From positions 512,001 to 576,000 of the forward strand of contig CAWDOD010000003.1 of NCBI GenBank assembly GCA_963803805.1: 64,000 nucleotides of DNA, written 5' to 3'. The DNA comes from an uncultured cyanobacterium (GTDB lineage: Bacteria; Cyanobacteriota; Cyanobacteriia; Cyanobacteriales; CAWCAG01). Under the pieces are notes generated by a model that saw only the letters and a program-made list of their open reading frames with translations, made no database searches and was not told the DNA's origin. The translations under genes and the position numbers were made by a program. This document shows, in pieces, positions 16,381 to 37,287 of the stretch; the stretch's first letter is position 1, and each line of letters starts with the position of its first letter.

Positions 16381-17430
16381 TTAATGATTATATAAAAAGT
16401 CTTTTAAACTTAACTCGATAGGTTCAAAGAAACTAGAAGCATACTCACTATAAACTTCTGGTAAAAACGATTTATTACTATTAACAAACAAAGTGTCTCC
16501 TAAAATTTGCAAAGCCCTTTCATTAAGAGACTCAATCAACACTTCTGGCATAGTAGCTTGACGATTTGCCATTTGCTTTAGAGCAGTTTCATCCCCTAAG
16601 ACAATTGCCTTAAATACGCTTCGCTGTTCTTCATTAAGGCTAAGATTAAATTCTCGCCACTCTAACCATTCCTTTGGTATGTAGCTTTCTCTATTTTCTG
16701 GTTCTTCTTTAACTATGGGTTGAGACTTGGGTTCCTTTTCCTGAACTAAAGTTTGAGCTTGAGATTGAGGACTATTAAAACCAGACTCCATCTGCTTTTT
16801 ATAACTAGCTAAGTTATGGAGATATTCATTAATTTGGTTGCGCTGTTTTTGCTTTTCGCCAATTTGTTTATGCAATCCATCTAATTCCCCTCGTAATTGA
16901 TTAAGACGAGTTTCTAACTCCCTAATTTGACCATTTCTTACTGTTAGAGATAAAGTCATTTCTGAACTCAGCTTCTCAAGCTGTTGTACTTGCTCTTGGC
17001 GCTGCTGTAGGCTTGTTTCAAGCTGCTGCTTTTGCTGTTGAATGTAGCCAAGTTCTTGATACAGGGTGTTACGTTGATTATGTAGTTCAGAAACCCTATT
17101 TAGCAAATGATTTGATTCAGTTTGCAGAGCATAGTTTCTCGCTTCTACTTCTTGGATAATTTCTGTAGCTGCCGATAAAGATTGTTGTATTTGAACTTCT
17201 TCTGCTTCTAGTTCTTGAATTTCGTCATAAAGATGGAACCGGAGTTGCTTTTCTTGTCTGATACGGTTTTGTTTAGCAATTATTACCCCTAAATAGGTAG
17301 AAGGAACAGTTATTACCCCTGTTAAAAGCGCTTTAGCAAAGCTACGCTGAAGAATTAGCCCTAGCCCAAAACTTATACCGAAGGCAACTGAACCAAGAAC
17401 GATCTGATTAACTGGCTTGCTGAATCTCAT
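16381..17430 (-). CDS. Membrane-anchored coiled-coil protein with a TerB-C-like C-terminal domain
   Basis: Two N-terminal TM segments, a long Q/E-rich heptad region, and C-terminal MPEVLIESLNERALQILGD typical of TerB_C. Confidence 0.7.
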   Translation of the reverse strand: MRFSKPVNQIVLGSVAFGISFGLGLILQRSFAKALLTGVITVPSTYLGVIIAKQNRIRQEKQLRFHLYDEIQELEAEEVQIQQSLSAATEIIQEVEARNYALQTESNHLLNRVSELHNQRNTLYQELGYIQQQKQQLETSLQQRQEQVQQLEKLSSEMTLSLTVRNGQIRELETRLNQLRGELDGLHKQIGEKQKQRNQINEYLHNLASYKKQMESGFNSPQSQAQTLVQEKEPKSQPIVKEEPENRESYIPKEWLEWREFNLSLNEEQRSVFKAIVLGDETALKQMANRQATMPEVLIESLNERALQILGDTLFVNSNKSFLPEVYSEYASSFFEPIELSLKDFLYNH

Positions 17431-20322: not shown

Positions 20323-23300
20323 CTACCCACGGCAAAGATTATCCCGCAAGCTCTTTTCTTGTTGTTTAACTGCTGCTAATAGTTCGGCGTGTTGGATAAT
20401 TACTCCAGCTTGGGAGTTGAAAATATCCATATACTTCTCATCATTTTGATCAAAGCTAGTACAAAAATCTGCCGGTATTTCTTCGTGGACTTCTCTATAG
20501 ACTTCGCCGTAGTCTCCAGAGAGTTTCTTGTTAACTAGTTGAGTTACGCCAATCAAATCCCCATCAGGATTCCACACTGGGGTACAAAGCAAGCTACAGG
20601 TACGATAACCAGTCTTGCTATCGGTTTTTTTAGCCATCTCCGATTGGGGATGGGTGTACAAATCAAAGGGGATATTTAAAGACTCTTTGGTTTTAGCTAC
20701 CGAACCCGCATAACCAACTCCCACCTTGATTCTTAATTCTTGGAGTGAACCATCCTCAAAAGGAATTTTTGTCCACAATTCATTACTACGCCGATCCAAT
20801 AACCAAAGGGTACTGCGGTCAGAGTTAATTAATTCTTTCGCCGCTTCCATAACCCGCTTGAGTATATCCTCTGGTTCTAAGGTACTTTGGTTAACAGAAC
20901 GAGTAGCTGCCATCAAAGCTGCAGCTACCCTTTGCCCCCTAGCGGTTTTGTGGTAGGAACGGAAGCTTTCTAAAATCATTTGGATTAAGGGGACTTGGGA
21001 AGCGAAGCGTTCCTCATCTTTAGCCGTAAATCCTTCTTGGTCAATTCTTTCGGGTAAAGGGGCATTTTGATCCCTAAAGCGTTTCAGTTTGTTAAGACAT
21101 TGGACAACGGCAAATAAATCTCCTTGTTCATTTAAAAGAGGGAAATTCAACATACTGTAGGTACGATAGCCATTTCTGCGATCTTGTTCTTTGGCTGTGA
21201 GGGAACGGGTATCGTCATAAAAGTCGTAGGGAATATTCATAACTTTCTTGCTAGCAGCAACTTCCCCCACAATACCTTTGTTGATGGGAATGCGAATTTC
21301 TAAGGAGCGATCGCCTTCTGCTTGGGCCACAATTGACCAAAATTCATCTCTTTCTTCATCAAGGAGGAATATACTGGTACGATCTGCTTCAACGGATTTA
21401 CCGAGTTTTTGAGAAATAGAGCGCAAAGTAGAGTCCATCACTTCATCGAAACCCTGACTTTCCATTACTTGGGTTAACATGGCTAGGGTTTGACTAACCA
21501 CATTTTGGGGATTACCTTCTGCTTGTTCTTTCATGGCAGCGAATTGTTTGGCGTTTTGAATAGCGACCCCAACTTGAGAATTAAATATTTGCATATATTT
21601 CTGGGAGTTGGCATCGAAGCTTGCTTGAAAACATTCCGGTGCTTCTGGCCAGTCAACAGGATTATAAGCAGGAAAATTTCCTGGTTTCCTTTTATTTACG
21701 AGTTGAGTAACGCCAATTAGTTCCCCATCAGGACTCCAAACAGGCATACACAATAAGCTACAGGTGCGATAACCGGTTTTTTGGTCGGTTTCTTGGGCTG
21801 TTTCTGAATCTATGTGGTTATAGAGGTCAAAACCAATATTTAAAGGCTCTTCGGTGGCAGCAACTTTCCCGGCATAACCCTGACCTACTTGTACTTCTAA
21901 TTCTTTGACACTACCATCTTCAAAGAGAATTTTAGTCCATAGTTTGTTAGCGTCCCTATCCAGTAACCATAAAGTACTGCGGTCGGCATTCATCAATTTT
22001 TTAGCCGCATTCATAACATTGTGAATCACCTCATCGGAGTCGAGACTACTTTGGGAAACGACTCGGGTAGCAAAGGTGAGGGCTTCGGAGGCTTGTAATC
22101 TTTGGGTTAATTTATAGCAGTATTGACATCTTTCAATGATTCGTAAAAGTTCTGGTGCATATTCACTAAATTGCTTTTGGTCAGCTTCGTTAAAACCTTC
22201 GCGATCAATACGATTAATTAAGGATTCAGTGGGATGATTGTTTTCTTCTAACTTGTTAATTAAGTTAACAACTGCAACTAATTTATTATGTTTATTTAAT
22301 AAAGGGACAGCTAAAAGGGTGTAGGTGGGATAACCTGTTTGTAAATCGACATTTTCCGGTTTTTCAAAGTTACTATCTTGGGCATAACCAAAAGGCACTT
22401 TGACCATCTCTTTTAAACTTGTAACCAAATCAACAATTTCGCGATTAGCACTAACTTCTACTTCCGAGCCAAAATAGTTACTTTGATTCCGGGCAATAAT
22501 TGACCAAATTTCACTTTTTTCTTCATCAATTAAATAGATGTTAATGCGATCAACACAAAGCAAATCGCTCATTTTTAAGGTAATAGAACCTAAAATTTCG
22601 TCGAGGATATAATCAAAGCCTTTCCCTTCCATAAAGTTAAGCATGGAGAGGAGTTTTTGCTCTTGTTTGGCTACTACTTGCATAAAGTCAGCGTGCAAAT
22701 TAGCTAAAGCTTTATTAACCCAATTCCAATTGAATACAGCAGCATAAATGCGATTATAAATACTTAAAATAGGGGTGGACTCTTTCTTCCCTAACCATCT
22801 TTTAACCACCAAACCAGAAAGCCGTAATTCCATTTGTTCAGGAGTTTCTTCAGCAGGAATTTCTCCTAAATTACTTTCTTCGGTAGCAGATTGGGCAGAA
22901 AGTAAAATTTGCTGATAAAGCTGCAAAAGAGGGCCACTCCTTTGACCAATTCTTAAGATGCGATCGCGGATAGTTTTCAAATGAGGCGGATCATCAGTGG
23001 CTTCCCAGTTATCAATGATGCGTCTGCGGACGATATCTTCTACCCACCTAGCAATATCACGACCATAAATATCTCCTTCATTTTCTACTTCTTGTAAGAT
23101 TAAATAACAAATTTTTTGGGTTAAAAAAGGTTGTCCTCCGGTCCAATATAAAACCGCTTCTAAGACTTCCTGGGGTTGACTGATTTTTCCTTCTAAGCCT
23201 TTAGCTAAAGGTTTGGCTTCTGCTAACTTAAAACCATTTAATTCAATACCACGACCAATATTAAAAGGAGTACAAGTTTTATCTTGAATTAAATCTGAAG

Positions 23301-23853
23301 GAGTTGCTACCCCCAACAAAGCAAAAGTGAGGCGTTGATATTCAATACAAGCGCGGATAAAAGCAAAGAAATCATCAGTACTAAAATTTAAGCTGAGAAT
23401 ACTATCAATTTCATCAATAAAAATAACAATTTTGCCCGGTACAGATTCTAATAAAACCTGTTCAATAAACTCGCTTAAACGCTGTACCGGGGGGAGAAAT
23501 TCTCTTTCTTTTAGCCAACGTTGCAGTTTGATGCGATCAGCTAATTTAAAATTCATGACTAAGCGTCGCATCACCCCGGCATACCATTGTTCTGGGGTAA
23601 TATCCTGGGAACCAATTTTAGTTAAATCAACAGCCCCACAAGCTACACCTTCTGCTTGCAAGCGATGCATCGTTCTTACTCGCAAGCTAGTTTTACCCAT
23701 TTGTCGTGAATTAAGAACGTAACAAAATTCCCCTGCTTTCAACCCCTGATATAACTCTTTATCTGCTTGGCGCACCACATAAGTAGGAGCATCCAAATGT
23801 AGATGTCCGCCAACTTTGTAGCTATAACTTAAGGTTCGCTCTTGACTTATCAT
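20323..23853 (-). CDS. AAA_35 ATPase fused to four GAF domains
   Basis: YVVRQAD, Walker [10 protein letters not shown], Walker [25 protein letters not shown]. Four GAFs, each with an NK...F motif; two carry YRTCSLLC. Confidence 0.88.
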
Positions 23854-23885
23854 TTATGATTTATCATTAAACATTTATCAATTGA

Positions 23886-25709
23886 TTAATTTCCTAAGCG
23901 ATCTCTAAAATATTGACGATACAATTCAAAGCGAGGCGTTACCTCATTTCTTTTTAGTTTGACTAAGCCGAGACTATGTAGCTTAAATGCTAATACAGAT
24001 TCCAACTCTATAGGTTTTTCCATAGTTACTACTTGAGAAAAAGCTAATGCTAACTCTGGATGTTGTTGTAAATTCCAAAGGTGGCGACGTAAGTGATCTC
24101 CATAAACACCGGCTTCGGTAGGAGCAGTTTCTGCTAGCTTTTCTAGGGTAAGCTGATGTTTAACTAGATGATAGAGAGCGACCTGCACTAAATAGGGATG
24201 TCCCCCCACAACATTCATTAACTGTTCCACTTGCTCGGAGTGCCAACTAAGTCCGTAGCGTTGAGCAAGATCAGCCACTTGAGCGTTGGTAAATTCCCTT
24301 AATTCAATGGGTAATCCTACATTAAAGGGAGATTGATTAACATTCAAGGGTAGATATACCTCTGTTGAATGTACTACCACCAACCTCAGCTTCTCCCAGA
24401 GATCGCTGTCACCATAACCATAACCAGCTTCTTCGTACCAAGCCCTTAAAAGTCCGAAAAAGTCGTCGGCTATTTTGGGATATTGGAAAACTCGGTCAAC
24501 TTCATCTAAGCCTAATACTAAAGGTTTGTCAGCTTCTGGCAAAAGCAGATCCTCAAAAATAGCAGTGCAGTTATCTTTGCTACCGTAGGTATCTGTCCAG
24601 TAATCATCTACTTTATAAGGTAAACGCAATTTACGGCAAACTTTAGTACAAAACCAGCGCAGAAGTTGATCGAGGTTGGTAAATACTCCCTTATCTGCGT
24701 GTTGAAAACTCAAAGGTACGGTGCGATATCCTTGTTCTTTGGCTTGGTAAAGAATTCTTGCCATCAAAGAAGTTTTACCCATTTGCCTGGGTGCTTTGAG
24801 GCGTATCAAAGCCCCTGGTTTAACAATTTCCTGGTAACATTGTTCTTCTCCAGGAACCCTTTTAATATAAAAAGCAGAAGCTAGACGTACTTGCCCTTTT
24901 GGTAATTCTGGTTCAGCGACGGGTAACGGAGGAGTAGTACTAAGATGGTAAGTCGGGGTTGCTTCGTCAATTAAGGGGAGACACCACCCCCCCTGATCAG
25001 ACAAAATATTGGTAATCTCTTGAATAATGCCAGGAGTTTCTTCTGGCGATCGCCAATCTCTTTGATAGGTTCCTTGGAGGTATCTACGGAGGTCGTGGTT
25101 AAGGGGAACTGTCGGGGGGCAGTTAATTCTGATTGTGAGGATAATCGGTTTAGTTTGGAAATCCTTATCCTTGGCTTGCCTCAACTCCTCAATTAACATT
25201 TCACTTGTTGCTGCTTGAGGAGAAAGGAGAAGTAAAAAGTAATCACACTGTTCTAATTCCGAATCAATTTGTGCTAACCAATTTTCCTCCGTTAAACCGA
25301 CACTAGCCCTAAAAGCTTGGTGTCCCGATGCTTCTATGGCCGTGGCTAATTGGGTAGCTAATTCATAGTCTGGTTCTTGGTTTAAATAGCTAAGGAAGAC
25401 TCGCTTAATTTCTTGGCTGGTTTCTTCTTTAACCTCAACTCCATCCTCTTCGTGACGTTTTAAAGCCCGTTCTAAGGCCCCTCTAATCCTCTTTTTCGTA
25501 ACCTTCTCCCCTAGTGCATTAGAGAGTTTTTGCCATAATTTGTAACCGACATACTTTTCGATGTATTGGGGATTGAGAGGGTAAATCTCTTCATAGGTTC
25601 GTCCTTGGCAAGAACCGATAAAAACTTCTCTTTCCAGGTCATTAAGGTGTTTACCAACTTTTTGATAAACTAAGCGATCTACTAATTCTAAAGCTTTCTC
25701 AAAGTCCAT
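23886..25709 (-). CDS. HTH - TIR - AAA_35 protein
   Basis: N-terminal HTH (GKHLNDLERE...TYEEI...LWQKLSNALGEKVTKK). TIR (VFLSY, CDYFLLLLSPQAATSEMLIEEL). Walker A APRQMGKTS, Walker B LGLDEVD, SPFNVG, GGHPYL. Confidence 0.85.
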   Translation of the reverse strand: MDFEKALELVDRLVYQKVGKHLNDLEREVFIGSCQGRTYEEIYPLNPQYIEKYVGYKLWQKLSNALGEKVTKKRIRGALERALKRHEEDGVEVKEETSQEIKRVFLSYLNQEPDYELATQLATAIEASGHQAFRASVGLTEENWLAQIDSELEQCDYFLLLLSPQAATSEMLIEELRQAKDKDFQTKPIILTIRINCPPTVPLNHDLRRYLQGTYQRDWRSPEETPGIIQEITNILSDQGGWCLPLIDEATPTYHLSTTPPLPVAEPELPKGQVRLASAFYIKRVPGEEQCYQEIVKPGALIRLKAPRQMGKTSLMARILYQAKEQGYRTVPLSFQHADKGVFTNLDQLLRWFCTKVCRKLRLPYKVDDYWTDTYGSKDNCTAIFEDLLLPEADKPLVLGLDEVDRVFQYPKIADDFFGLLRAWYEEAGYGYGDSDLWEKLRLVVVHSTEVYLPLNVNQSPFNVGLPIELREFTNAQVADLAQRYGLSWHSEQVEQLMNVVGGHPYLVQVALYHLVKHQLTLEKLAETAPTEAGVYGDHLRRHLWNLQQHPELALAFSQVVTMEKPIELESVLAFKLHSLGLVKLKRNEVTPRFELYRQYFRDRLGN

Positions 25710-25887
25710 ATATATACTGATAAGACTATGATTAATTTTAATCTGAAACTCAAGATGTAGTAAGGGGTGATGGGGAAGTTAAAAGTGATTTTTTTGGGGT
25801 TTTTACTTAATGATTTTGAACCTAATTACCAACTAAATTAAGTGTTTATTCTTGAATTAAGATTTTAGTTATGAGATCCTTTAAAAT

Positions 25888-25903
25888 ACTGATTCAGATC
25901 ACA
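25888..25903. promoter_or_regulatory. CRP/SyCRP1-like box
   Basis: ACTGA-TTCAGA-TCACA matches 12/16 of TGTGATCTAGATCACA. Confidence 0.4.
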
Positions 25904-26235
25904 GCCAAGGTAAAGCTCATTAGTCTATTTTTTATATAAAGACGTGGGAATATAAGTGCTTTCCTTAAGTTATTTTTTGTTAAGTCATAGCTAGTATGGG
26001 GTTTTATGAGGTCTGAAATAAAGATGTTTTTCGCGATAGATTTATAGCATCAGCAAGAACTAAGAAACTTATGGTATTTTCTGGTTCTCATAGCTCAAAT
26101 ATTTAGTTAAAACTATATAAAGTAAGCAATATTCAATCGTTGTTTAATTAATTAATAGAAAAACTGAAATAGTTAAATTTATTCAGTTATTTCACTTGGA
26201 TTGAAGCAAAAGTAAAGTCCACTAGGTAAACAGAA

Positions 26236-27228
26236 ATGTTTAACTTAACTCAAGAAAGAATCGATAGCTGCGTGCGGCGTTTGCAAGGGGGTTACTTCCG
26301 GATATACGGTAGCTCCAGGGCTGAATATGCTGAGTTGATTGCTAGTGTAGCTAGGGTTGCTTTAGAAAATATTGCCCGTAGCGATGCTGCTTATCACGAT
26401 GTAGATCATACTATTCTTGTTACCTTAGCCGGACAAGAAATATTGCGAGGAAAACATATCCGCGAAGGCAATGTTTCTTGCGATAATTGGTTTCATTCTA
26501 TTATTTCTTTGTTGTGTCATGATATTGGTTATATCAAAGGAATTTGTCGCCAAGATCGCCCTCAAGAAAAGTTGTTCGTTACAGGTAAAGATAGGGAAGT
26601 AATCGCCTTAAAACCAGGAGCCACTGATGCGGCTTTGACTGATTACCATGTAGACAGGGGCAAACTATTTGTTGAAGAGAACTTTTCTGGTTATAAACTA
26701 ATTGATATAGGAGTTATCAATGACAACATTGAAATGACTCGTTTCCCTATTCCCAAAGAGGGAAAGTATCAACAAACTAGTACCTATGCAGCCTTGGCTA
26801 GGGCCGCTGATTTAATTGGTCAATTGGCAGATCCCCACTACTTGCAAAAAATGCCCGCTTTGTTTTATGAGTTCTGGGAAAACGGTACTAGCGAAAAACT
26901 AGGTTATAGCCATCCAGGGGATTTGCGTTCTGCTTATCCTAACTTCTTTAAAACCGTTGTTAGTCCTTATATTCAAGAGGGTTTGCACCACTTAGAAGTT
27001 ACCAGACAAGGGCGAGAAATTATTGCCAGCTTGTATGAAAATGTTTGGGTTGTGGAAAATGAGTTAAAGGATAAAGATGGTAGTAGTTCCGAGGATCATC
27101 CTCAAACTCTAGTTTCTATCCCTCCTTTACCTGATGTAGGTACTCTTGCTGCCAAAGCTAACCTTTTCTCCAGTGAGGGTGGGCTAAGAAACTGGTTGCC
27201 TAAGTCCTTGCGTATTAGTCATGCCTAA
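26236..27228 (+). CDS. HD-domain metal-dependent phosphohydrolase (Npun_R2479-like)
   Basis: YHDVDHT, CHDIGY, YHVDRG, RAADLIGQLADP. Confidence 0.85.
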   Translation: MFNLTQERIDSCVRRLQGGYFRIYGSSRAEYAELIASVARVALENIARSDAAYHDVDHTILVTLAGQEILRGKHIREGNVSCDNWFHSIISLLCHDIGYIKGICRQDRPQEKLFVTGKDREVIALKPGATDAALTDYHVDRGKLFVEENFSGYKLIDIGVINDNIEMTRFPIPKEGKYQQTSTYAALARAADLIGQLADPHYLQKMPALFYEFWENGTSEKLGYSHPGDLRSAYPNFFKTVVSPYIQEGLHHLEVTRQGREIIASLYENVWVVENELKDKDGSSSEDHPQTLVSIPPLPDVGTLAAKANLFSSEGGLRNWLPKSLRISHA

Positions 27229-28523: not shown

Positions 28524-28547
28524 ACTTATTACTTATTACTTATTACT
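28524..28547 (-). repeat. (TAAGTAA)n heptamer tandem repeat overlapping the dndE stop
   Basis: acttatt x3 + act. Confidence 0.75.
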
Positions 28548-28937
28548 TTCTCCTGCCTGACAACTTAGCTGTATTAAATCTTCAATCCTCTTTAATTTAG
28601 GATCTCCTGCTAAATAACTAATGCCACGATGTAAATGTAAGCGAAATTGATAAGCAAGGGTTTCCTTATCTGTACCTAAACCATCTTGATGGCAACGCTG
28701 TTTTAAGGCCAAAATAAAAACATCGGACATTTTGCCAGAAAAGACTTGCCAGGTTAATTCTATATTACTATCAGCAGGAATTGGTACAGGAGAAGGAATC
28801 GAGGGTTCAGCAAGAGAACGACAAAAACCCCAGCGACAGAGTACATTCCAATGTTCAATTTTGGTGAGACGTTTGAGTTTAATTAGCTGATCTCTAGCTG
28901 TGTTGGAGAGTTTGATGTTGTTGACAGGAGGCTGCAT
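28536..28937 (-). CDS. dndE: DNA phosphorothioation protein DndE
   Basis: IKLSNTARDQLIKLKRLT, WNVLCRWGFCRSL, FRLHLHRGI. Confidence 0.93.
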   Translation of the reverse strand: MQPPVNNIKLSNTARDQLIKLKRLTKIEHWNVLCRWGFCRSLAEPSIPSPVPIPADSNIELTWQVFSGKMSDVFILALKQRCHQDGLGTDKETLAYQFRLHLHRGISYLAGDPKLKRIEDLIQLSCQAGESNK

Positions 28938-28988
28938 TTTAATTGATAATTGTACGGCTTTGCCGTTGTCGTAAACTAAATTGAATTA

Positions 28989-30974
28989 TTACCAGAAATA
29001 GCCTTCTTCTATGGTAGTTTCTTGGTTTTCATGGTTGTATTTTAATAAATATTCCTTGGCGATCGCCCCGGATTTTCTTAACTGTTCTACCTCCATTTTA
29101 CCTATTTCTGTATCCGTAGAAAGGAGGATAACTTGATGAGAAGCAGCCGGAAAATAGCGTTCCACTAAATTATGGCGGTGTTCTGAATCTAATCTTCCTA
29201 AAGGCGTGTCAATAGCTACGGGCAAATTGCGTCCTGAAACCCTTGCTAGTCCCCATAAAAAAGCAATTGCTAGGAGTTGTTTTTCCCCGGCGGAAAGGCG
29301 ATGTTTGGGTACAGATTCTCCTTGAAGATTATAAAGTGAAAGGCAGAAATTTTCGCTGTCAATAGCAATGCGATGCACTAAATCTTCTTTGTGGAGGAGA
29401 TAGCGGAAGCATTCTGTCACTTCTACCTCTAAACGATTTAACTTTTTTAAAGTTAATTTTTCTCTAAATAATTGTAGGGTTTTTTGTACCTTAGCTGCGG
29501 ATTTAATAATATGTTCGTCGTTGCTGCGATCAATATGTTCTTCTCCATATTTTTGCAACTCTTTTTTCGTTTCTACAATCTCTCGTTCTATTTCCGTACA
29601 CTTTTTATTACCTGATTCATATTCAGCCTGTACTTTACCTAACTCTTTTTGGGCTTTTGCTACTGCTTTTTCTAATTTTTCATAGGCTTCTGGGGGGGCA
29701 GCAGTTTCTAGTTGACATTCTTGAGAGTTTATTTCTAATTCAATTTGTTCTAACTTTTCTAATCGCTCTTTTGCCAAAGAAATTTGTCTCGGAACTTCTC
29801 TATAGATAAGATGGTTTAATTGCTTAACTTCCTCACTTCCGCATCCCAAATAAGCATCTCTTTCTGCTTTTATTTCTGTGTCTAAAGATTGATTTTCTGC
29901 TGCTAAAAAAGCTTCGATTTGCTTAAACTTATTTTTAGCTAAAGAAATAGATTGTATATATTCTAGCAAACGTTCATCTCTTTCTACTAACACTTCTCTA
30001 GCAATTTGTGCCTGTTCTCTTTTAACTTCTACTTCCCCTTGTTGGTAGGTTTCTTTTAACAAAGGTACAATCAATCCTAAAGGCAGAACATCCCCCACAA
30101 CTTCTTTCAAACCTTGACGCTGTTCTTCTTGTTCCTTTTGTAATTGTTTAAGTCCTGCTTCTAACTGAGAACGCTTTGCGGCAATTTTCCCTCCTTCTAC
30201 AATAAAGTTACTTGTTGCTATTTGCTGTTTTTCCTGTGCCTTAGCTAACTTTTCTTGTAACTCAGATAACTCTTGCTTAGCAATTACCAAATCATCTTTT
30301 TGTTGCTTAATCCTCTTTTCAATAGCTTCAATATCAAGGCGCTGCTTTTGCGTAGCTAAAGCTTTTCTTTTGCGAGTAACTAAAATATCTAAATCGACAC
30401 TCAACCTTTCTGCTAACTCCAACCCCAAAAGAGATTGAATTGCTTCAACAACCATAATTGGTGGAGTCTCTAACTCTGCCAATTCCTTTACCTGTTCCCC
30501 ATCAAAAAGGAATAGATTAGCAATACCTAAAGGAAAAATATCTTCTATTCTCTCATCCCAGGTTTTGGTTAAAGCATCATCAAACCATTTATCAACGGCG
30601 ATATTTAAAGTATCTTTACCATTTCTCGGATTCCTTAACCAACTCCTTCTAATCCGAAAAACGGCTTGTTGGCTATTATAAATATGTTCAAAAGCTAACT
30701 CCACACAAGTCTCTTCTGTCGCTTTTGCTAATTTATGTACCGATTGGGTAAGAAAGTCTCCGTAACTTAAGTTACCACGGGTAGAACATTGGGCGCGGCT
30801 ACCATAAAAAGCAAGGCGTATGGCATCCATAAGCGTAGTTTTACCACCGCCATTCATTCCTCCTAACAGGATAATAGGGCTTGTATTTTCTTCCTCAACC
30901 GGAAATTGGAAATTAAGTATATTACGCCCCCTATAAGGGCCGAAATTTTGTAAAACTAGTTCGCAGAATCTCAC
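28989..30974 (-). CDS. dndD: DNA phosphorothioation SMC-like ATPase DndD
   Basis: NFGPYRG, GMNGGGKTT, LFLFDGEQV, long coiled coil, LSAGEKQ, IDTPLGRLD, QVILLSTDTEI. Confidence 0.95.
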   Translation of the reverse strand: MRFCELVLQNFGPYRGRNILNFQFPVEEENTSPIILLGGMNGGGKTTLMDAIRLAFYGSRAQCSTRGNLSYGDFLTQSVHKLAKATEETCVELAFEHIYNSQQAVFRIRRSWLRNPRNGKDTLNIAVDKWFDDALTKTWDERIEDIFPLGIANLFLFDGEQVKELAELETPPIMVVEAIQSLLGLELAERLSVDLDILVTRKRKALATQKQRLDIEAIEKRIKQQKDDLVIAKQELSELQEKLAKAQEKQQIATSNFIVEGGKIAAKRSQLEAGLKQLQKEQEEQRQGLKEVVGDVLPLGLIVPLLKETYQQGEVEVKREQAQIAREVLVERDERLLEYIQSISLAKNKFKQIEAFLAAENQSLDTEIKAERDAYLGCGSEEVKQLNHLIYREVPRQISLAKERLEKLEQIELEINSQECQLETAAPPEAYEKLEKAVAKAQKELGKVQAEYESGNKKCTEIEREIVETKKELQKYGEEHIDRSNDEHIIKSAAKVQKTLQLFREKLTLKKLNRLEVEVTECFRYLLHKEDLVHRIAIDSENFCLSLYNLQGESVPKHRLSAGEKQLLAIAFLWGLARVSGRNLPVAIDTPLGRLDSEHRHNLVERYFPAASHQVILLSTDTEIGKMEVEQLRKSGAIAKEYLLKYNHENQETTIEEGYFW

Positions 30975-31057
30975 TCATTTACCTGGGGAAGTACCAACAA
31001 GTGCAAAATACTATCACTATTAGGTTAAGGAGTGCAAGATTACTCCTGGAATATTTT

Positions 31058-32617
31058 TTAAGAGTTAGGAAATTTCAAATTTCCCCAAGTTAATTGTTGA
31101 GACTCTAATTCGCTTTTTAAAGCATTAACATCTCCTTCTGTAGCAGCGTTCTTAATATTCCTTTTTGAGTGAGCATTTTTAATAGCTTCGTCCTTAGAAC
31201 GAGAACTAGTTACAAAGCATTCTTCCAAGGCTTGATAAATACCACTTCGTGTTGCTTTAGTATAATACTGCCGTTCCGTATCTATTAGTTTCGCCATCAA
31301 TTCTAAGTCCATAGCATCGTCGCAAATTTCTGTTAAAGTATGCCATTCTTCTACTCCCAGTAAGCTACTATCTGCCCCTGGGCGAGTATCAACAAACTTT
31401 TCTCCTGTTACTTCTTCATAAATACTAGGCAAGCTATCATCAAATTCATGCTTTTCTTCTAACCAAATGCGGCGTATTTCACTCAGTTCTTCCGGGGTAA
31501 TTAAGGTTATATTTTCCATGTTTTCTGGTGCAGTTTTGCGAACTTTTGTTTGGGCTTCTAATACTCTTTTTAACCAATGTTCGCGCCAATATCTTGTATA
31601 AGGGCCTGGTATATTTTCTACAGAAGTTTTCCCTTCTTTTTCTCTTTCAAAAAGTTGAACTTTACCAAATATACGACGAAAATCACGGCGATCGCGGTCA
31701 TTTTCAACATCTAATTCATTTCTGATATCTAAAAGAGGTTGCATCCATTCTTTTTCGGTGTCATTTTGGATCATTGCCTCCATAGATTTATCTTTATTAA
31801 CTAAGGTACAAACCCAACAACCAAAGCGGGAACTACCACAGCTAGGAGTGGAAGTATCAACTACTAAAGGACATTCATTATCTGCTGTTGCCCCCCGATA
31901 CATAGTAAATAAGTCTTTGTTATCAACTCCCCAAGGATTTTTCCACTGATTGAGATAAAGCCAAACTTCGTCAGTACGCCAGTCTTCAATGGGGGAATAA
32001 ATCAAGGAGTTAGGTAAACTACCATGAGGGCTAAGGTGATTCCGCAATCTTTTTGCTTCGTGTTTCTCCATTGTCGCTGCCCGTTTAGAGCTTTCCGCTT
32101 TGCGTGTACCTAAAGCTAAAATTGTTTCTCCATGCTCCCTAACTACTTCTCGTATGAAATGATTAGCCGGTTTAATTTTTAATCTTTCTGTACACCAACG
32201 AAAATGATTTCTGGGGGCAGGATAACCTTTACCAATTAAGCAAGCCCAAAAAGTATCTTTAACAGCAGGATAAGTTAAATGAGTTTCTATGGGCATTTTT
32301 TGTTGTTGGGCTGCTGATTCCATCTTTTCTAAAGATTTACGTACCCAAGCAGAAACTACAGGATTTTCTACTAATGTATCGTTAGTAATGACATGAATAG
32401 TTTTAGTTCTTTTTTCTAGAGGAAGAGCTGCGATCGCATTCCAAATTAGTTGCAGCACTGTAGTGCTATCTTTCCCTCCAGATACACCAACAATCCAAGG
32501 TATTGAGTCTAGGGAATATAACTCTTGTATTTCAGTAGTTAGAGCCTTGATATCTTCTACTAGTTCTTTAACACTACGCTTATTTGGCTTTTCTTTTACT
32601 TGTTTTGAGTTAACCAT
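31058..32617 (-). CDS. dndC: DNA phosphorothioation sulfurtransferase DndC (PAPS-reductase fold)
   Basis: PWIVGVSGGKDS, DTLVENP, GKGYPAP, FRWCTERLKI, SCGSSRFGCWVC. Confidence 0.96.
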   Translation of the reverse strand: MVNSKQVKEKPNKRSVKELVEDIKALTTEIQELYSLDSIPWIVGVSGGKDSTTVLQLIWNAIAALPLEKRTKTIHVITNDTLVENPVVSAWVRKSLEKMESAAQQQKMPIETHLTYPAVKDTFWACLIGKGYPAPRNHFRWCTERLKIKPANHFIREVVREHGETILALGTRKAESSKRAATMEKHEAKRLRNHLSPHGSLPNSLIYSPIEDWRTDEVWLYLNQWKNPWGVDNKDLFTMYRGATADNECPLVVDTSTPSCGSSRFGCWVCTLVNKDKSMEAMIQNDTEKEWMQPLLDIRNELDVENDRDRRDFRRIFGKVQLFEREKEGKTSVENIPGPYTRYWREHWLKRVLEAQTKVRKTAPENMENITLITPEELSEIRRIWLEEKHEFDDSLPSIYEEVTGEKFVDTRPGADSSLLGVEEWHTLTEICDDAMDLELMAKLIDTERQYYTKATRSGIYQALEECFVTSSRSKDEAIKNAHSKRNIKNAATEGDVNALKSELESQQLTWGNLKFPNS

Positions 32618-32803
32618 TCTCTCCCTTCTGTGACTATTACCCCATATTTGAGCATAAGAGATTATTGAACTCTTTTAGCTATATTTAGAACATTCAAAAG
32701 TTATAAATATATAAGTGTTGTATTTTTCTTCCTTGACATGATATTATGTACATGGTGGAAAAGGTGCGCTCCTAAAAAATGATTTTCCCAAAGCTTTAGT
32801 AAG

Positions 32804-32884
32804 GTAGGTTGGTTTAGGCTTGAGATATCATCACGTAGGGACGAGCCGTCTATGTTATTTTAGTTGCCTACAAACCAAACTTAT
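32804..32884. repeat. Imperfect GTAG-type palindromic element upstream of dndC
   Basis: gtaggttggtttaggc ... gcctacaaaccaaacttat. Confidence 0.45.
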
Positions 32885-32918
32885 TGAGTTGCTTTTGACA
32901 AGGATTAAATGGAGGGCA

Positions 32919-32977
32919 GGCGACCCAATGTAATCAGTTTTTAACTCTTCAAGTTCATGAAAACGGGCCGCCTCTAC
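32919..32977. repeat. 59-bp REP/SDR-like palindromic element
   Basis: ggcgacccaat...aaacgggccgcctctac; same ends and length as 41701-41759. Confidence 0.7.
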
Positions 32978-33000
32978 AGAGAATATTGTTTTTTATATCA

Positions 33001-35309
33001 CTATTGTTTAATCGCTTCTTGTACTCTTTCTATTTGTTTAGGTGCTGGTATATTGCTGAATAATTGAATCGCTTTCTCGAAGTTTTCTTTACTTTTAGCC
33101 GTTTCTTCCATATCTTGATAGGTTAAAGCGAGTTGAAAATAAGCTTCTGCAAGGTCACATTTAGCACCGATTTTATCAAGCATTTCTATAGATTCTGTAT
33201 GATGAGAGAGCGCTGTTGTAAATTCTTTTTGCAAGCGATAAAGTTCTGCAAGTCCTGTTAGAGATTTAGCTTTTACTTGTTTGTAGTTACTTTCTTCTGC
33301 ATATTTAATTGCTTGACGATACATTTCAAACGATTCTGTTATTTGTTCTAGATTTTTGTAGGTCTTGCCTAGAAACAATAAGCTATATCCTTTAGACCAA
33401 GAACTTAGTTTTCTTTTTTCTGCAAACTCCCAATATCTAGATAAGAGTGCTTTTGCTTCTTCTCGGAATCCAAAGTGAGATTTCAAATAACTTAGACAGA
33501 ATAAAGAGTCAGATGTAAAAAATTTTTGATGTTTTTATATTCTTTAACAAGTAAAATAGTTCGCTCGAAATAATCTACTGCCCTATCCAACTCAAAATAG
33601 TCTAAGTAACATAGACCTTGATTATAAGTCGCAAATGCTTCTTGTTCTTTGTTTTTGATTTTGCGAGCGACATCTCCAGATAATTTATGAGACTTTATGC
33701 TCTTTCCTAAATTTCCTTTTATCCAGTATAAATCTCCCAATATACCCAATATTCTAGTAGTTACAGCTAAGTTATTTATTTTACTAACTAGTCTTTCAAT
33801 TGCCAAAATCATTATTTGCAACAAGCCTAATCGGTAAAAAGACATACCGAGAGATTCATCTTCATCCCAAGGATTAGCTCTAAAATTGTTAATTACAGAA
33901 CTAGCTGCATCAACATCATCAACTTCTAAATAATGGTGATAAGCTTCAAAAGCTTGGAAAGCATCTTTTTCATCTTCAACTGTTTCAACGCTTTCTGTCC
34001 AAAATTGTGCTGCATCACGATTAGCTTTCTCCCAATCTTCACTACTTTTCAACCTCGCAACCGCTTCAGCACGAATAACTGGATGTAACCAATATTCACC
34101 CTTAAAAAACTCAATCAAAGAGCGATCGCGCAAAACATTAACAACCTTCAGTCGTTCCCTTTCTGCCACATCCCAAAGTAAACAGAAAATCCCTTCTAAA
34201 GGAACAGTTGCAACATCTTGATAGCGATAACATCCCAAACGACACAAGAGATTATAAGCAGCTATGTTTTGCTTTGCTAAACGCTGAAACTGACAACTAA
34301 CTAAATCTTCTAACTCTCCTTCACTGGGTAAATACTTTTGATTAGCTTGCCAATATGCTTTAATGTCGCTGTCGTAATCCTGTTGAATAGCACTGCTAAG
34401 AATTTCCATCGCTTTAGCATTACCGCCATAGTATTTATGTATAGCTTCTAAACTAATCAAGTCAAATTCTTCACCAACCGACACCCTATCAAAACGACGA
34501 ACAAAAAACTCTTGCCAAGCAGCAAAATCTAAACCTGACAAGTGATAACCAGAAAAATTTAGGGCAGATTCTCTGATGCGATCGCGGCTAGTAATCAAAG
34601 TAAGAGATTTCAACTGAGGAGTAGTTAAAATTCTCAACAACTCTACATAGCGGCGATGGGGTGTAACCAACTTACCCTTCTCATCTAAAGCAGGTTCAAA
34701 GTTATCAATCAATAAGCCAATTTTCTCCTGCTTTAGCTTCTGTTTCAACCTTTCCAAAGATACCCCAAACTCTCTACCAGGTTCCTCCCCTAACTGCTTT
34801 AACTTCTCCTCCAACAAACTTTCTACTGAAGTAATATTTTGAGTTTCTTTAGCAATGGGAAACTCAATAAAACGGCTAAACCTTTGCTGAAGATATCTTC
34901 TTGCTAAAGTAGTTTTCCCGACACCACCGCCAGCATAAATTAAAACAACTTTCGCACCTTTGTTAATCAAGTCATCTAAATCGGCGATCGCCCCCTCTCT
35001 ACCGACAAAACTGAGATCCGCTATTTTATCTACCGTCTCCTTTTCCTTTTCAGGTGCAACCAACTCTGGTTTATACTTAGCAAACAGTGCCAGTAAATTC
35101 GGTCTTTGGGAACGACGAGCATCTGGGAAATCGTTAATTAAACCAAACTCTGTACAAATTCCTGAGATATGCTGTCTCACCGTTGCTCTCTCAATGTGTA
35201 AAGCTTGAGCAATTTCTGTATCACTTTTCCCCGCCAAAAATTTCTCTAACACCTCTCTACGCCTTGGTGATAGCTTTTTGAAAGTTCGCTCGAACTGTTC
35301 CCTAATCAT
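33001..35309 (-). pseudogene. LuxR-type HTH / NB-ARC (STAND) / TPR gene split by a frameshift near 33517-33522 (pseudogene, assembly error or -1 recoding)
   Basis: HTH LSPRRREVL...GKSDTEIAQALHIERATVRQHI. FVGRE, Walker A GGVGKTTLA, LLIDNFE, LITSR, WLHPVIR. TPRs continue in ORF 33001-33486, and the -1 frame reads FTSDSLFCLSYLKSHFG across the gap. Confidence 0.8.
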
Positions 35310-35315
35310 ATTTTC

Positions 35316-35378
35316 ACAGGTGTTTATGCTGTTTGTAGATAAAAACTCACAAGCTTTGTGCAACAGATGTTTATGATG
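35316..35378. promoter_or_regulatory. Direct repeat pair flanking a short palindrome (candidate operator)
   Basis: acaggtgtttatgctg (35316-35331) and acagatgtttatgatg (35363-35378), 14/16 identical, with cacaa-gct-ttgtg (35348-35360) between them. Confidence 0.55.
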
Positions 35379-35433
35379 CCAATGCCACTATTGAGGTGGT
35401 TATTTATCTTGCGTATTTAGGAGTCAAAACCCG

Positions 35434-35598
35434 ATGACTACTTTCGAGCGTAACTATCTCATTATCAGTTTGATTAATCTAATTGTACATTTATCCACTC
35501 TAGCTATTCAACTCAACCCCAACCATGCTTCTTCTCTCATCGAAAACCAATTATCACCGCAAGTTCCCTTAACGGAAACTTATCAATCCTCTGATTAA
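35434..35598 (+). CDS. Unannotated 54-aa small protein with a hydrophobic N-terminal helix
   Basis: AGGAG at 35419-35423. Hand translation: MTTFERNYLIISLINLIVHLSTLAIQLNPNHASSLIENQLSPQVPLTETYQSSD. Confidence 0.5.
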   Translation: MTTFERNYLIISLINLIVHLSTLAIQLNPNHASSLIENQLSPQVPLTETYQSSD

Positions 35599-35730
35599 GG
35601 TTTTTACAGCCTGACTGGTTGGAAGTTCGTTTCTCTTAATTTGGTGTGAGACAATTATTTCACAAACCCTGCATTAGTTTTTAAAAACTTTTGTTGAGTT
35701 TTTGTTTTTTGGGTAATAGTTTGTCCTTTG

Positions 35731-37287
35731 ATGGAGAAACCAACCCAAAATCCAGGCTTGATGAATCTCAGCAAACAACTCCTCAAAACCAACCTTTCCC
35801 CACAAGAAGAAATTTTTGTTCAAAAAACTCAGATGGGCAGCACAGAAGCTTATCTTGGTACAGTTACCTTAGAATGGGTAGCTAGTCGCCTTCGCTTCGC
35901 CGCACAACTGCCCTTATTTCAAAACAAATTTGACCCTAAAACCAACAACACTATCCGGGATGCTACCACCATTGAAAAATTGCAACAACGTCCCTTAAAT
36001 TGGTCGCGTCAAGCTTTGTTAGCACAGTATTTAGCAGTACGCAAACATCATAAATTTCCTGCCCTTCTGGTTGTTCTCAGCCCACCTTGGGTAGATAATC
36101 CAGAAGCGGAAACCTGGTGTCAACAAAAGGCTTTGCATTCAGCAGCTAACTTCACTGCATTAGATGAGGAAGGTAATCTGGGATTTTTAGATATCTCCTC
36201 AAACATTGCCATTTTTGCCCTTGATGGACAACATCGACTCATGGGTATTCAAGGTTTAATGGAGTTGCTGAAAACTGGACAGTTAATTAAATACAATAAA
36301 CACAAAAAACCAACAGGAAAAGTTCTTACCACTGCTAATTTAAGCAAAGAATACAACCTTGATCCTGCATACCTACAAAACCTGGCACAGGAAAAGATTG
36401 GCATTGAATTTATCCCCGCTGTGGTTAAAGGGGAAACTAGGGAAGAAGCCAGACGGAGAGTGCGTTCTATTTTTGTCCACGTTAACCTCATGTCTGTTAA
36501 CCTCAGCAAAGGACAACTCGCCCTATTAAATGAAGATGATGGCTTCTCCATTGTGGCAAGAAACATTGCTGTCACCCACCCCCTATTCCGGGAAGAAGAA
36601 TGGCGCAACCCCCGCGTTAATTGGGATAGTGCCACTGTTGCTGCCAAAGCCACAGTGTTAACCACTCTCCAAGCCTTAAAAGATATGGCGGAAGCATACT
36701 TAAAGCCTAAATTTCCCCACTGGCAACCTGTAGAAAAGGGTTTAATCCCGTTGCGTCCTGAAGATGAAGAATTAGAGTTAGGATGTCAAGAGTTTGCTAA
36801 ACTTTTTGATAACCTCGCTACTCTACACAGTTATAAAAGACTGAATAAAGGTACAGAAACTCCTCAACTACGCCGCTTCAGTCATGAACAGGGTAAAGGA
36901 GAAGCGAACATTCTCTTTCGCCCGGTGGGACAAATTGCTTTAGCACAAGCATTGGGAATTTTAGTTACCCAAAAGAAGTTAAAACTGAAAACTATTTTCA
37001 CTAAACTGCGTCAATACGATAAACAAGGAGGATTTAGTGGTATGGAATTTCCTTCCTCTCCTTGGTATGGGGTTTTATACAATCCGCAAAAAAAGCGGAT
37101 TCAAATTTCTGGTAAAGATTTAGCTAGTAAATTAATAGTTTATTTGGTGGCAGGAATAGAAGATGAATTAGACTATGCCAAACTCCGTACAGCCGTAGCT
37201 AAAGCCAGAATAGTAGGAGAAAATCAAGCAATGGGTTTTAATGGGGAAATTGTTAAGCCCAAAGAGGTAGGTTTGCCAGAAAGGTAA
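35731..37287 (+). CDS. DGQHR-domain (DndB-like) protein
   Basis: QQRPLNWSR, HHKFPALL, FALDGQHRL, RSIFVHVN, LALLNEDD. Confidence 0.9.
   Translation: MEKPTQNPGLMNLSKQLLKTNLSPQEEIFVQKTQMGSTEAYLGTVTLEWVASRLRFAAQLPLFQNKFDPKTNNTIRDATTIEKLQQRPLNWSRQALLAQYLAVRKHHKFPALLVVLSPPWVDNPEAETWCQQKALHSAANFTALDEEGNLGFLDISSNIAIFALDGQHRLMGIQGLMELLKTGQLIKYNKHKKPTGKVLTTANLSKEYNLDPAYLQNLAQEKIGIEFIPAVVKGETREEARRRVRSIFVHVNLMSVNLSKGQLALLNEDDGFSIVARNIAVTHPLFREEEWRNPRVNWDSATVAAKATVLTTLQALKDMAEAYLKPKFPHWQPVEKGLIPLRPEDEELELGCQEFAKLFDNLATLHSYKRLNKGTETPQLRRFSHEQGKGEANILFRPVGQIALAQALGILVTQKKLKLKTIFTKLRQYDKQGGFSGMEFPSSPWYGVLYNPQKKRIQISGKDLASKLIVYLVAGIEDELDYAKLRTAVAKARIVGENQAMGFNGEIVKPKEVGLPER

Follow-up and report, generated by a model that had tools for sequence, protein, structure and literature searches.

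Paired AAA_35 ATPases with cyclic-nucleotide-type GAF tandems and a phosphodiesterase-like HD protein: a possible signalling module of filamentous cyanobacteria

What could be sensed, and what could be done about it, by two paralogous ATPases of which one ends in four GAF domains and the other begins with a TIR domain, when a divergent gene for an HD-domain protein accompanies them? The question is raised by a locus in the genome of an uncultured cyanobacterium of the order Cyanobacteriales (assembly GCA_963803805.1, contig CAWDOD010000003.1, positions 512,001 to 576,000; the whole stretch of 64,000 nucleotides is called the window here). The genes are referred to as P0001 (sensor ATPase), P0002 (output ATPase) and P0003 (HD protein). 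In the list of open reading frames (ORFs), the three genes, both gaps and the motifs lie where a first-pass annotation of the sequence had placed them: P0002 is upstream of P0001 on the same strand at a distance of 32 bp, P0003 diverges from P0002 across 526 bp, the Walker A sequence RQMGKTS is present in both ATPases and SEMLIEE corresponds to residues 169-175 of P0002 (Table 1). The answer that we favour, tentatively and as the most probable of those weighed below, is that the three genes make up one cyclic-nucleotide signalling module, i.e., a split switch for cyclic AMP (cAMP) that resembles the signal transduction ATPases with numerous domains (STAND) and the NOD-like receptors (NLR), with a DNA-binding and TIR output and with feedback through a phosphodiesterase (PDE).

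Conservation of the three genes and of their shared spacer

Relatives were sought in 61 related genomes, in 401 genomes sampled evenly across the phylum and in one genome per species, for which the best 80 of 602 relatives were taken. Synteny of the HD gene had been set beforehand as a test by which the idea of a module could be refuted, and the link survived the gene-neighbourhood survey: in 31 of the 33 informative genomes, the HD gene and the TIR-ATPase gene are head-to-head neighbours. The two ATPase genes were adjacent in 29 of 34. Nine of the 61 related genomes contained a full-length P0001 orthologue (a tenth ends at a contig edge), and the order of HD gene, divergent TIR-ATPase gene and GAF-ATPase gene was the same in all nine, with other flanking genes common only to the genome of the same genus. 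The phylum sample provided five further orthologues (at least 59% identity), all with the three-gene order, and one at 49% identity (G426) with neither partner gene. Twenty-one further genomes with a near-full-length orthologue (at least 52% identity, two duplicates removed) came from the per-species scan: all three genes were adjacent in 12, one had the pair with no HD gene in the 3 kb available, in another the TIR gene was 3.7 kb upstream and the DNA covered ended before the HD side, two were cut by contig ends and five had the GAF-ATPase gene alone. Altogether, the three-gene order spans at least nine family codes and two orders, while all the other flanks change outside the genus. The genomes from the per-species scan come from filamentous cyanobacteria (Symplocastrum, Stenomitos, Zarconia, Microseira, Floridaenema, Phormidium, Planktothrix, Coleofasciculus and others). 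It should be noted that the HD genes of L105 and G037 are nearly identical, and these two genomes may not be independent, and that the genome scan with P0002 (E≤1e-190) was too strict and misses orthologues with inserts (G107, G215, G285 and G347).

A variant sensor with 47% identity was found in G285 (contig C100). At this locus (L095, G285:C100:181543-198995), the gene for a CyaB-like GAF-GAF-PAS-cyclase (841 aa) diverges from that for an AAA_35-cyclase fusion (636 aa), which is followed by the AAA_35-GAF4 sensor (1157 aa); neither HD nor TIR was found there. We count it in favour of our reading, as a second link of such a sensor to cyclic nucleotide monophosphates (cNMPs).

The spacer between P0002 and P0003 contains a conserved cis-element that is specific to the module. 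One part of it, Box B, has 0-4 mismatches over its 18 positions in the 14 loci that define it and is found 69-205 nt from the HD start codon; the other, Box A, consists of two or three 10-bp tandem units placed 60-90 bp beyond Box B toward P0002 in the different genomes, and its two-unit pattern is unique to this spacer within the own 5.3-Mb genome. When loci outside the defining set were screened, allowing up to four mismatches, Box B was present in 15 of 17 additional spacers of the module (the four with an unlinked sensor gene being among those screened), in 2 of 42 regions upstream of solo HD genes and in none of 20 regions upstream of paralogous TIR-AAA_35 genes, against a background of 17 matches in 777 kb of other DNA. 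Such a phasing of the repeats, by one helical turn, would fit a DNA-binding protein that oligomerises. Binding of P0002 to these boxes can only be inferred, because its N-terminal domain is not recognised as a helix-turn-helix (HTH). The core of the Box A unit presumably resembles a MalT box.

No AAA_35 gene was detected within 5 kb of a solo HD gene at 42 loci (of 69 listed), and no HD gene was found at any of 21 paralogous TIR-AAA_35 loci. This last count rules out the HD protein as a general companion of AAA_35 pairs.

Two CyaB-type GAF tandems on the sensor ATPase

Pfam recognises in P0001 an AAA_35 domain (residues 16-255, model positions 4-246, 77 bits for a cut-off of 27) and GAF domains in four stretches (159.7 bits), with nothing more C-terminal to the last of them. 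The 14 full-length orthologues align with 54-98% identity. When residues 396-1176 were compared with all the sequences of the PDB, the best match was the cAMP-bound GAF tandem of Anabaena CyaB2 (1YKD, E 1.3e-168), to which the P0001 GAFs are, as estimated from the alignments, ca. 65-70% identical; P0001 is therefore read as an NTPase to which two CyaB-type tandems are joined C-terminally. Far weaker matches (E 2e-19 to 4e-5) were obtained with the GAFs of PDE5, PDE2, PDE10 and PDE6. The two tandems are internal duplicates of each other, ca. 46% identical. According to passages of PMC4411481, CyaB2 is activated by cAMP and not by cyclic GMP, its tandem is ca. 50,000-fold selective for cAMP and the contacts with the ligand include T293 and I308. 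The motifs that hold the equivalents of these two residues in the alignment with 1YKD, ADRSTLW and WTKI, are retained in GAF2 and GAF4. Homology and retained contact residues thus give strong support to the assignment of the P0001 GAFs as putative cNMP-binding tandems of the CyaB/PDE type, and the earlier proposal that the array senses a cyclic nucleotide gains a specific model in the cAMP-bound CyaB2 tandem.

The number of GAFs is variable. At L180 (G235), all three genes are present and the sensor has a single domain of GAF-B type. A different arrangement is found at L172, where a sensor of 1013 aa matches approximately one P0001 GAF tandem only (sensor residues 477-864) and its partner is an AAA_35 protein of 442 aa that lacks the TIR and still faces the HD gene.

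The HD protein and the class I phosphodiesterase fold

P0003 was assigned to the NCBIfam equivalog NF045583, “Npun_R2479 family HD domain-containing metalloprotein” (432.1 bits for a cut-off of 400, positions 1-275 of 275), and had no Pfam match even at E≤10, the HD model PF01966 included. Its AlphaFold2 model, built on an alignment of 51 family members, has a predicted local distance difference test (pLDDT) value of 88.3 and a predicted template modelling score (pTM) of 0.85; residues 285-330, present only within the genus, are disordered in it. All the 50 matches listed by Foldseek for this model in the PDB are catalytic domains of class I PDEs, namely PDE1B, PDE10A, PDE6 and PDE4B (E from 8e-4, TM ca. 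0.5). A VIA search against representative structures, independent of Foldseek, placed class I PDEs at all of ranks 1-17 (Z 14.6-16.7, root-mean-square deviation [rmsd] 3.4-4.7, 224-253 residues aligned): PDE7A, Leishmania PDEB1, PDE5, PDE9A, PDE3A, RhoPDE, PDE8A, PDE4D, PDE2, PDE1B, PDE4B, a trypanosome PDE and yeast PDE2 are the names found there. These alignments cover ca. 250 of the 285 ordered residues, with only 10-14% identity to the first-ranked PDEs, and other HD hydrolases came no higher than Z 13.4, with 126-201 residues aligned.

At the sequence level, the family profile found only PDE10A in the PDB (34 of 34 rows), with E values of ca. 0.7-0.9 that are not significant; in this non-significant alignment, YHNxEH...CHD of the family falls on YHNWKH...CHD of PDE10A. 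H54, H58, H95 and D199 are invariant in the 51 family members, and D96 and D192 are found in at least 90% of them; H95 and D96 form the HD motif. The class I PDE motif is given as H(X)3H(X)25-35(D/E) in passages of PMC4222275, and the family consensus, H54-x3-H58-x25-D84, fits it; P0003 itself has N84, with D83 one residue before. Because the sequence similarity is not significant and PDE activity is only putative, we do not file P0003 as a member of the class I PDEs; the predicted model has their fold, and the protein may work as one. The role of signal eraser that had been proposed for it is thus backed by a complete class I fold in the model, but not by significant sequence similarity to any PDE.

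The Npun_R2479 family comprises more than 4500 proteins (E≤1e-5, 8000 candidates scored), and its members are annotated only as HD metalloproteins, metal-dependent phosphohydrolases or hypothetical proteins. Two trees were built, the second of them excluding two very long branches. The HDs linked to ATPase pairs are long-branched and strongly clustered (none of 500 shuffles needed so few label changes), and a few solo copies are interspersed with them, those that form the sister group of the window HD included. The family has another conserved context: in many genomes a slowly evolving HD paralogue adjoins a gene for an OppC-type ABC permease, as in the own genome (C6:233337-234212) and at loci L025, L029, L037, L040, L044, L045, L049, L052, L055, L060, L062-L064 and L068.

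The output ATPase and the family of AAA_35 gene pairs

In P0002, Pfam detects TIR_2 (PF13676, residues 104-206, 48.9 bits for a cut-off of 28) and AAA_35 (residues 270-602, model positions 2-330, 500.4 bits for a cut-off of 27). We aligned 14 orthologues (58-93% identity). The whole protein gave nothing relevant in the PDB by sequence. An AlphaFold2 model of residues 1-262 (pLDDT 85.3) consists of an N-terminal domain of five helices (residues 3-18, 24-34, 39-42, 47-66 and 75-88, pLDDT ca. 87-94) followed by a TIR fold. The VIA matches of this model are taken up by TIR domains (Z 12.6-13.8), the closest being those of IL-18R-beta (Z 13.8, rmsd 2.7, 130 residues aligned), SARM1 (Z 13.4, rmsd 3.1, 128 aligned, 22% identity), RPS4 (Z 13.3, rmsd 3.0, 138 aligned) and Cat1 (Z 12.6, rmsd 2.5, 124 aligned), together with TIR-1. 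A weak profile alignment to Cat1 (E 0.048) identifies the canonical catalytic glutamate as E175; E170 and E174 are invariant in the 14 orthologues.

With respect to the N-terminal domain, the three nearest named clusters in an Atlas language-model look-up were all PF26355, HTH_VMAP-M9 (0.90, 0.88 and 0.87), and the clusters with PF26355 share 194-196 of 256 features with the P0002 N-terminus. This is a lead only; no model called HTH_VMAP-M9 was among the matches in Pfam scans of the P0002 N-termini. Paralogues have real HTHs at the equivalent position. That the modelled domain is a HTH-like, putatively DNA-binding one we regard as weakly supported.

Walker A and Walker B are intact in both proteins, and the columns GKT/S, hhhhDE and GG(H/Q)P(Y/F)L are invariant across 30 AAA_35 modules of the two types. 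The AAA_35 profile has no solved relative by sequence in the PDB, where the best match was archaeal ORC2 (E 0.016) and the remainder were RecA matches at the level of the P-loop. STAND ATPases, as Leipe et al. reportedly described them in 2004, have a related fold and, after Walker A and B, a helical module containing a motif of GxP type.

The N-terminal ca. 390 residues of P0001 have hundreds of paralogues (52-64% identity), present in 58 of the 61 related genomes and fused to WD40 arrays, to a TRADD-like_N domain or to uncharacterised regions, and in P0002-type paralogues the TIR is preceded by a HTH, a class III cyclase or a trypsin domain. Since 13-14 of 21 paralogous TIR-AAA_35 genes have a sensor-type AAA_35 gene close by, P0001-P0002 is a subtype of an abundant cyanobacterial gene pair, “effector-TIR-AAA_35 plus AAA_35-sensor.” One paralogue of P0002, located on another contig of the own genome (C2:503520-505619, L027:5903-8002), combines a class III cyclase with TIR_2 and AAA_35 in 699 aa; the gene after it codes for a YbjN-domain protein, and there is no sensor-type AAA_35 gene close by. 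This paralogue is a possible source of a cyclic-nucleotide signal within the genome. In a single genome (L089:6007-7945), the two ATPase genes are separated by an insertion of three small genes, which code for a DUF4058 protein, a RusA-like resolvase and an AHJR-like nuclease.

Genomic surroundings of the module

The features of the locus and of its neighbourhood are collected in Table 1. A dnd (DNA phosphorothioation) cluster adjoins the module (window positions 28536-37287), with a gene for a tetratricopeptide repeat (TPR) protein also lying between its dnd genes. Directly after dndB there is an insertion sequence (IS) with a DDE_Tnp_1_3 transposase (303 aa, 37377-38288), and a second copy with identical Pfam scores adjoins a stand-alone AAA_35-WD40 gene elsewhere in the own genome (C10:89750-90661). 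A protein of 349 aa encoded at 16381-17430 has a TerB-C domain and a long coiled-coil region. The remaining neighbours, tsaB, DUF2062 and yceG, are ordinary housekeeping genes.

Table 1. Coordinates (window numbering) of the three genes, their domains, the spacer boxes and the adjoining dnd cluster
Feature	Positions	Strand	Remarks
P0001 sensor ATPase	20323-23853	(-)	1176 aa; AAA_35-like NTPase then four GAFs, no output domain
GAF3-GAF4, P0001 residues 786-1176, second CyaB-type GAF-A/GAF-B tandem	20326-21498	(-)	338.6 bits vs 1YKD residues 9-292
GAF1-GAF2, P0001 residues 396-785, first CyaB-type GAF-A/GAF-B tandem	21499-22668	(-)	GAF2 vs CyaB2 GAF-B (1YKD) 235.4 bits
P0001 NTPase module, residues 1-395	22669-23853	(-)	Walker A RQMGKTS, Walker B IFIDEID, GGQPFL motif
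P0002 output ATPase	23886-25709	(-)	607 aa; helical N-terminal domain, TIR, AAA_35 NTPase
P0002 AAA_35 NTPase module, residues 262-607	23889-24926	(-)	Walker A RQMGKTS, Walker B LGLDEVD, GGHPYL
P0002 TIR domain, residues 99-238	24996-25415	(-)	Pfam TIR_2 and modelled fold
P0002 N-terminal helical domain, residues 1-98, candidate HTH of VMAP-M9 type	25416-25709	(-)	
Box A, two 10-bp tandem units	25992-26011	(-)	unit on P0002 strand: CCTCATAAAA
Box B, 18-bp conserved box	26069-26086	(-)	150 nt upstream of HD start codon
P0003 HD protein	26236-27228	(+)	330 aa; Npun_R2479-family HD metalloprotein, class I PDE fold in model
DndE	28536-28937	(-)	position common to same-genus genome only
DndD-like SMC ATPase	28989-30974	(-)	
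PAPS-reductase-type DndC candidate	31058-32617	(-)	
623-aa ORF inside dnd cluster	33492-35363	(-)	no Pfam match
DndB-like gene	35728-37287	(+)	

Discussion

How the module might work. P0001 would sense cAMP (less likely another 3',5'-cNMP) through its two GAF-A/GAF-B tandems, and binding of the ligand would free its AAA_35 NTPase module to assemble with the paralogous module of P0002, a contact that we infer. The assembly would gather the N-terminal domains of P0002, allowing the HTH-like domain to bind the 10-bp-phased repeats of the spacer, where it might act as activator or repressor, and would pack together the TIR domains, to serve as a scaffold or as an NAD-cleaving enzyme. P0003, as a putative PDE of class I type, would hydrolyse the cyclic nucleotide, and we propose that the module would therefore reset itself. 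A bolder view, which we consider doubtful at present, is that the Npun_R2479 HD family is the bacterial counterpart of the class I cAMP PDEs and the module a self-contained cAMP homeostat or alarm, in which a split NLR-like receptor would take an endogenous messenger as its ligand and link it both to TIR assembly and to the transcription of the gene for its eraser.

Parts of this arrangement are familiar from other systems. P0001 is like Anabaena CyaB1/CyaB2 (1YKD; passages of PMC4411481) in its level of identity to the tandem of CyaB2, in the GAF-A/GAF-B order and in the T293/I308 motifs of the GAF-B-type domains, whereas its tandem is duplicated and fused to an AAA_35 NTPase instead of PAS and cyclase domains, so that the output under regulation would be an ATPase switch and not cAMP synthesis. 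Animal PDE2, PDE5, PDE6, PDE10 and PDE11 likewise combine cNMP-type GAF-A/GAF-B tandems with a class I PDE fold; in the module, however, the tandems and the PDE-like protein are encoded separately, on opposite strands, with two ATPases as the bridge between them, and the likeness of P0003, with its low identity and without the histidine that PDE10A has after HD, comes from a modelled fold. TIR-NLR/STAND receptors and sensor-helper pairs (RPS4-RRS1, NAIP-NLRC4, Avs, bNACHT) share with the module the order of an N-terminal TIR effector, a P-loop switch with Walker A/B and GG.P.L and a C-terminal ligand-binding array, and the sensor-helper pairs also share the division of parts between two paralogous neighbours. 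Unlike them, the module has as its NTPase AAA_35 (PF14516) and not NB-ARC or NACHT, its sensor would be meant for a small endogenous messenger and not for a pathogen protein, and a HTH-like domain and a PDE-like partner are added. Escherichia coli MalT, a STAND ATPase with a LuxR-type HTH, offers the precedent of a ligand-gated ATPase that would oligomerise and bind arrays of asymmetric boxes of ca. 10 bp; the HTH-like domain of P0002 is, in contrast, N-terminal and not detectably of LuxR type, the sensor is on a second protein and a TIR is present. Type III CRISPR with ring nucleases and Thoeris also join a nucleotide signal, a TIR or other effector output and a dedicated hydrolase, but the module has no CRISPR, ThsA/SLOG or SAVED component, and its PADLOC and NCBIfam matches are at the level of the TIR domain only.

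Several observations weigh against our reading. The full NK...F...DE pattern is present in GAF3 and GAF4 of the window only; GAF1 (NKFD-Q, ending in D-Q) and GAF2 (NKF-SQ, ending in S-Q) have incomplete patterns, and GAF4 reads D-Q in most P0001 orthologues, unlike that of the window. Regarding the domain calls, Pfam and NCBIfam agreed with the first-pass annotation on TIR_2, AAA_35 in both proteins, the four GAFs and the HD metalloprotein, but not on the N-terminal HTH of P0002: it matched no Pfam or NCBIfam model, nine orthologous N-termini gave no Pfam match at E≤10, and hhalign against the GerE/sigma-70-r4 HTHs of paralogues gave probabilities of 0.2 and 0.9%. A simple scan of the spacer found no sigma-70-type promoter (0, versus 3.2 expected in shuffles). 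E175 of the TIR is E in the window and in 9 of 14 orthologues, and is replaced by T, I, V, Q and Q in the other five; given this variation, the TIR may be a scaffold or an NAD-cleaving enzyme. The HDIGY sequence of P0003 lacks the histidine found in PDE10A four residues after the H of HD, and a shared PDE fold does not fix the substrate. The members of its family are mostly in other gene contexts, with ca. 15 of 42 solo copies adjoining an OppC-type permease gene, and a single clade of pair-linked HDs was rejected (five changes on both trees, approximately unbiased test p 0.0025). Five of 33 genomes have the sensor gene unlinked from the TIR-ATPase gene; the P0002 orthologue (62-70% identity) lies on another contig there, and its retention of the divergent HD gene in four of them counts in favour of the module. 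The distribution is patchy, a P0001 match at E≤1e-180 being present in 9 of the 401 genomes of the phylum sample.

The same parts could form an NLR-like system of anti-phage defence or cell death, in which a cyclic-nucleotide alarm, produced by a cyclase upon infection, would be sensed by the GAFs, the pair would oligomerise and the TIR would destroy NAD+ or make a signal derived from ADP-ribose (ADPR), the PDE-like enzyme setting the threshold or switching the response off in the manner of the ring nucleases of type III CRISPR. We judge this unlikely, in spite of the conflict-system features of the wider family, i.e., trypsin or cyclase domains ahead of the TIR and partners with WD40 or TRADD-like_N, which passages of two papers tie to conflict systems of multicellular bacteria (Kaur et al. 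2020, PMC7159879; Kaur et al. 2021, PMC8195603). The cyclase-TIR-AAA_35 paralogue in the own genome, the patchy distribution, the adjoining dnd cluster and the closeness of the TIR model to TIRs of SARM1, RPS4 and Cat1 type also speak for defence. PADLOC, however, gave no system-level match, with TIR-level matches for P0002 only (SAVED_TIR, E 8.6e-6; ThsB, E 0.0055) and none for P0001 and P0003, and the NCBIfam Thoeris model ThcB4 scored 22 bits for a cut-off of 220. Nor do a canonical glutamate missing in 5 of 14 orthologues, or GAFs of a kind that binds endogenous cAMP, favour a toxic response to infection; the orthologues are well conserved (54-98% identity) with a common cis-element, unlike hypervariable sensors, and the dnd neighbourhood is common only to the same-genus genome. 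We therefore rank a role in cAMP homeostasis or behaviour, itself held with reserve, above infection-triggered defence, in a ranking that sequence alone does not decide.

Less probable again is a reading in which the HD protein, as a regulated target or partner, acts on another substrate, e.g., a TIR-made ADPR derivative, a 2',3'-cNMP, (p)ppGpp or a deoxynucleoside triphosphate (dNTP), or shares no more than a promoter region with P0002. HD folds serve many substrates, and SpoT/Rel, small alarmone hydrolases, YpgQ and HD-GYP proteins appear at Z 8-12 in the VIA search with P0003; there is also the precedent of an enzyme encoded at a cyclase locus and predicted to be a class III PDE, which proved to prefer 2',3'-cAMP (passages of PMC4222275). 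When the genes separate, the HD gene stays with that of the TIR protein and not with that of the GAF protein in four of five genomes, and most of the HD family is found in unrelated contexts. On the other hand, 3',5'-cNMP PDEs take all of the first 17 places among the structural matches, clearly ahead of other HD enzymes, the YHN..H and CHD motifs fall on those of PDE10A in the alignment and the partner gene codes for cAMP-type GAFs. That the three genes are functionally unrelated and adjacent by an accident of descent seems very improbable: the pair-linked HDs are not one clade and the other flanks in the window (tsaB, DUF2062 and yceG) are housekeeping genes, as such an accident would allow, but the order is maintained across families and orders, with every other flank changed outside the genus, and the shared spacer carries an element of its own. 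A single cyclic-nucleotide signalling module thus keeps our preference.

We found no description of the module or of an AAA_35 pair in literature searches, in which PF14516 appeared in no paper, and nothing on the function of the Npun_R2479 family or on it as a cyanobacterial cAMP PDE. The passages of Kaur et al. 2020 (PMC7159879) contain no AAA-like, PF14516 or paired STAND, with GAF in a general list of nucleotide-binding domains only, and those of Kaur et al. 2021 (PMC8195603) contain no GAF, AAA-like or PF14516. An assigned cyanobacterial 3',5'-cAMP PDE of the P0003 type was likewise not found in the literature searched.

Cyanobacteria have many adenylate cyclases and make use of cAMP. To our knowledge, class I cAMP PDEs are usually described from eukaryotes only, and an HD metalloprotein family of more than 4500 members whose modelled fold is that of class I PDEs would be a concrete candidate for a cAMP PDE. 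We know of no earlier STAND/NLR-like ATPase pair with a classical second messenger as its input; if our reading is true, the module would be the first, and it would repeat in a prokaryote, with several proteins, the GAF-PDE logic of animal PDE2, PDE5, PDE6, PDE10 and PDE11. The AAA_35 pairs of cyanobacteria would gain a member whose ligand (cAMP), DNA site and feedback enzyme can all be guessed, through which the whole family of pairs would become experimentally approachable.

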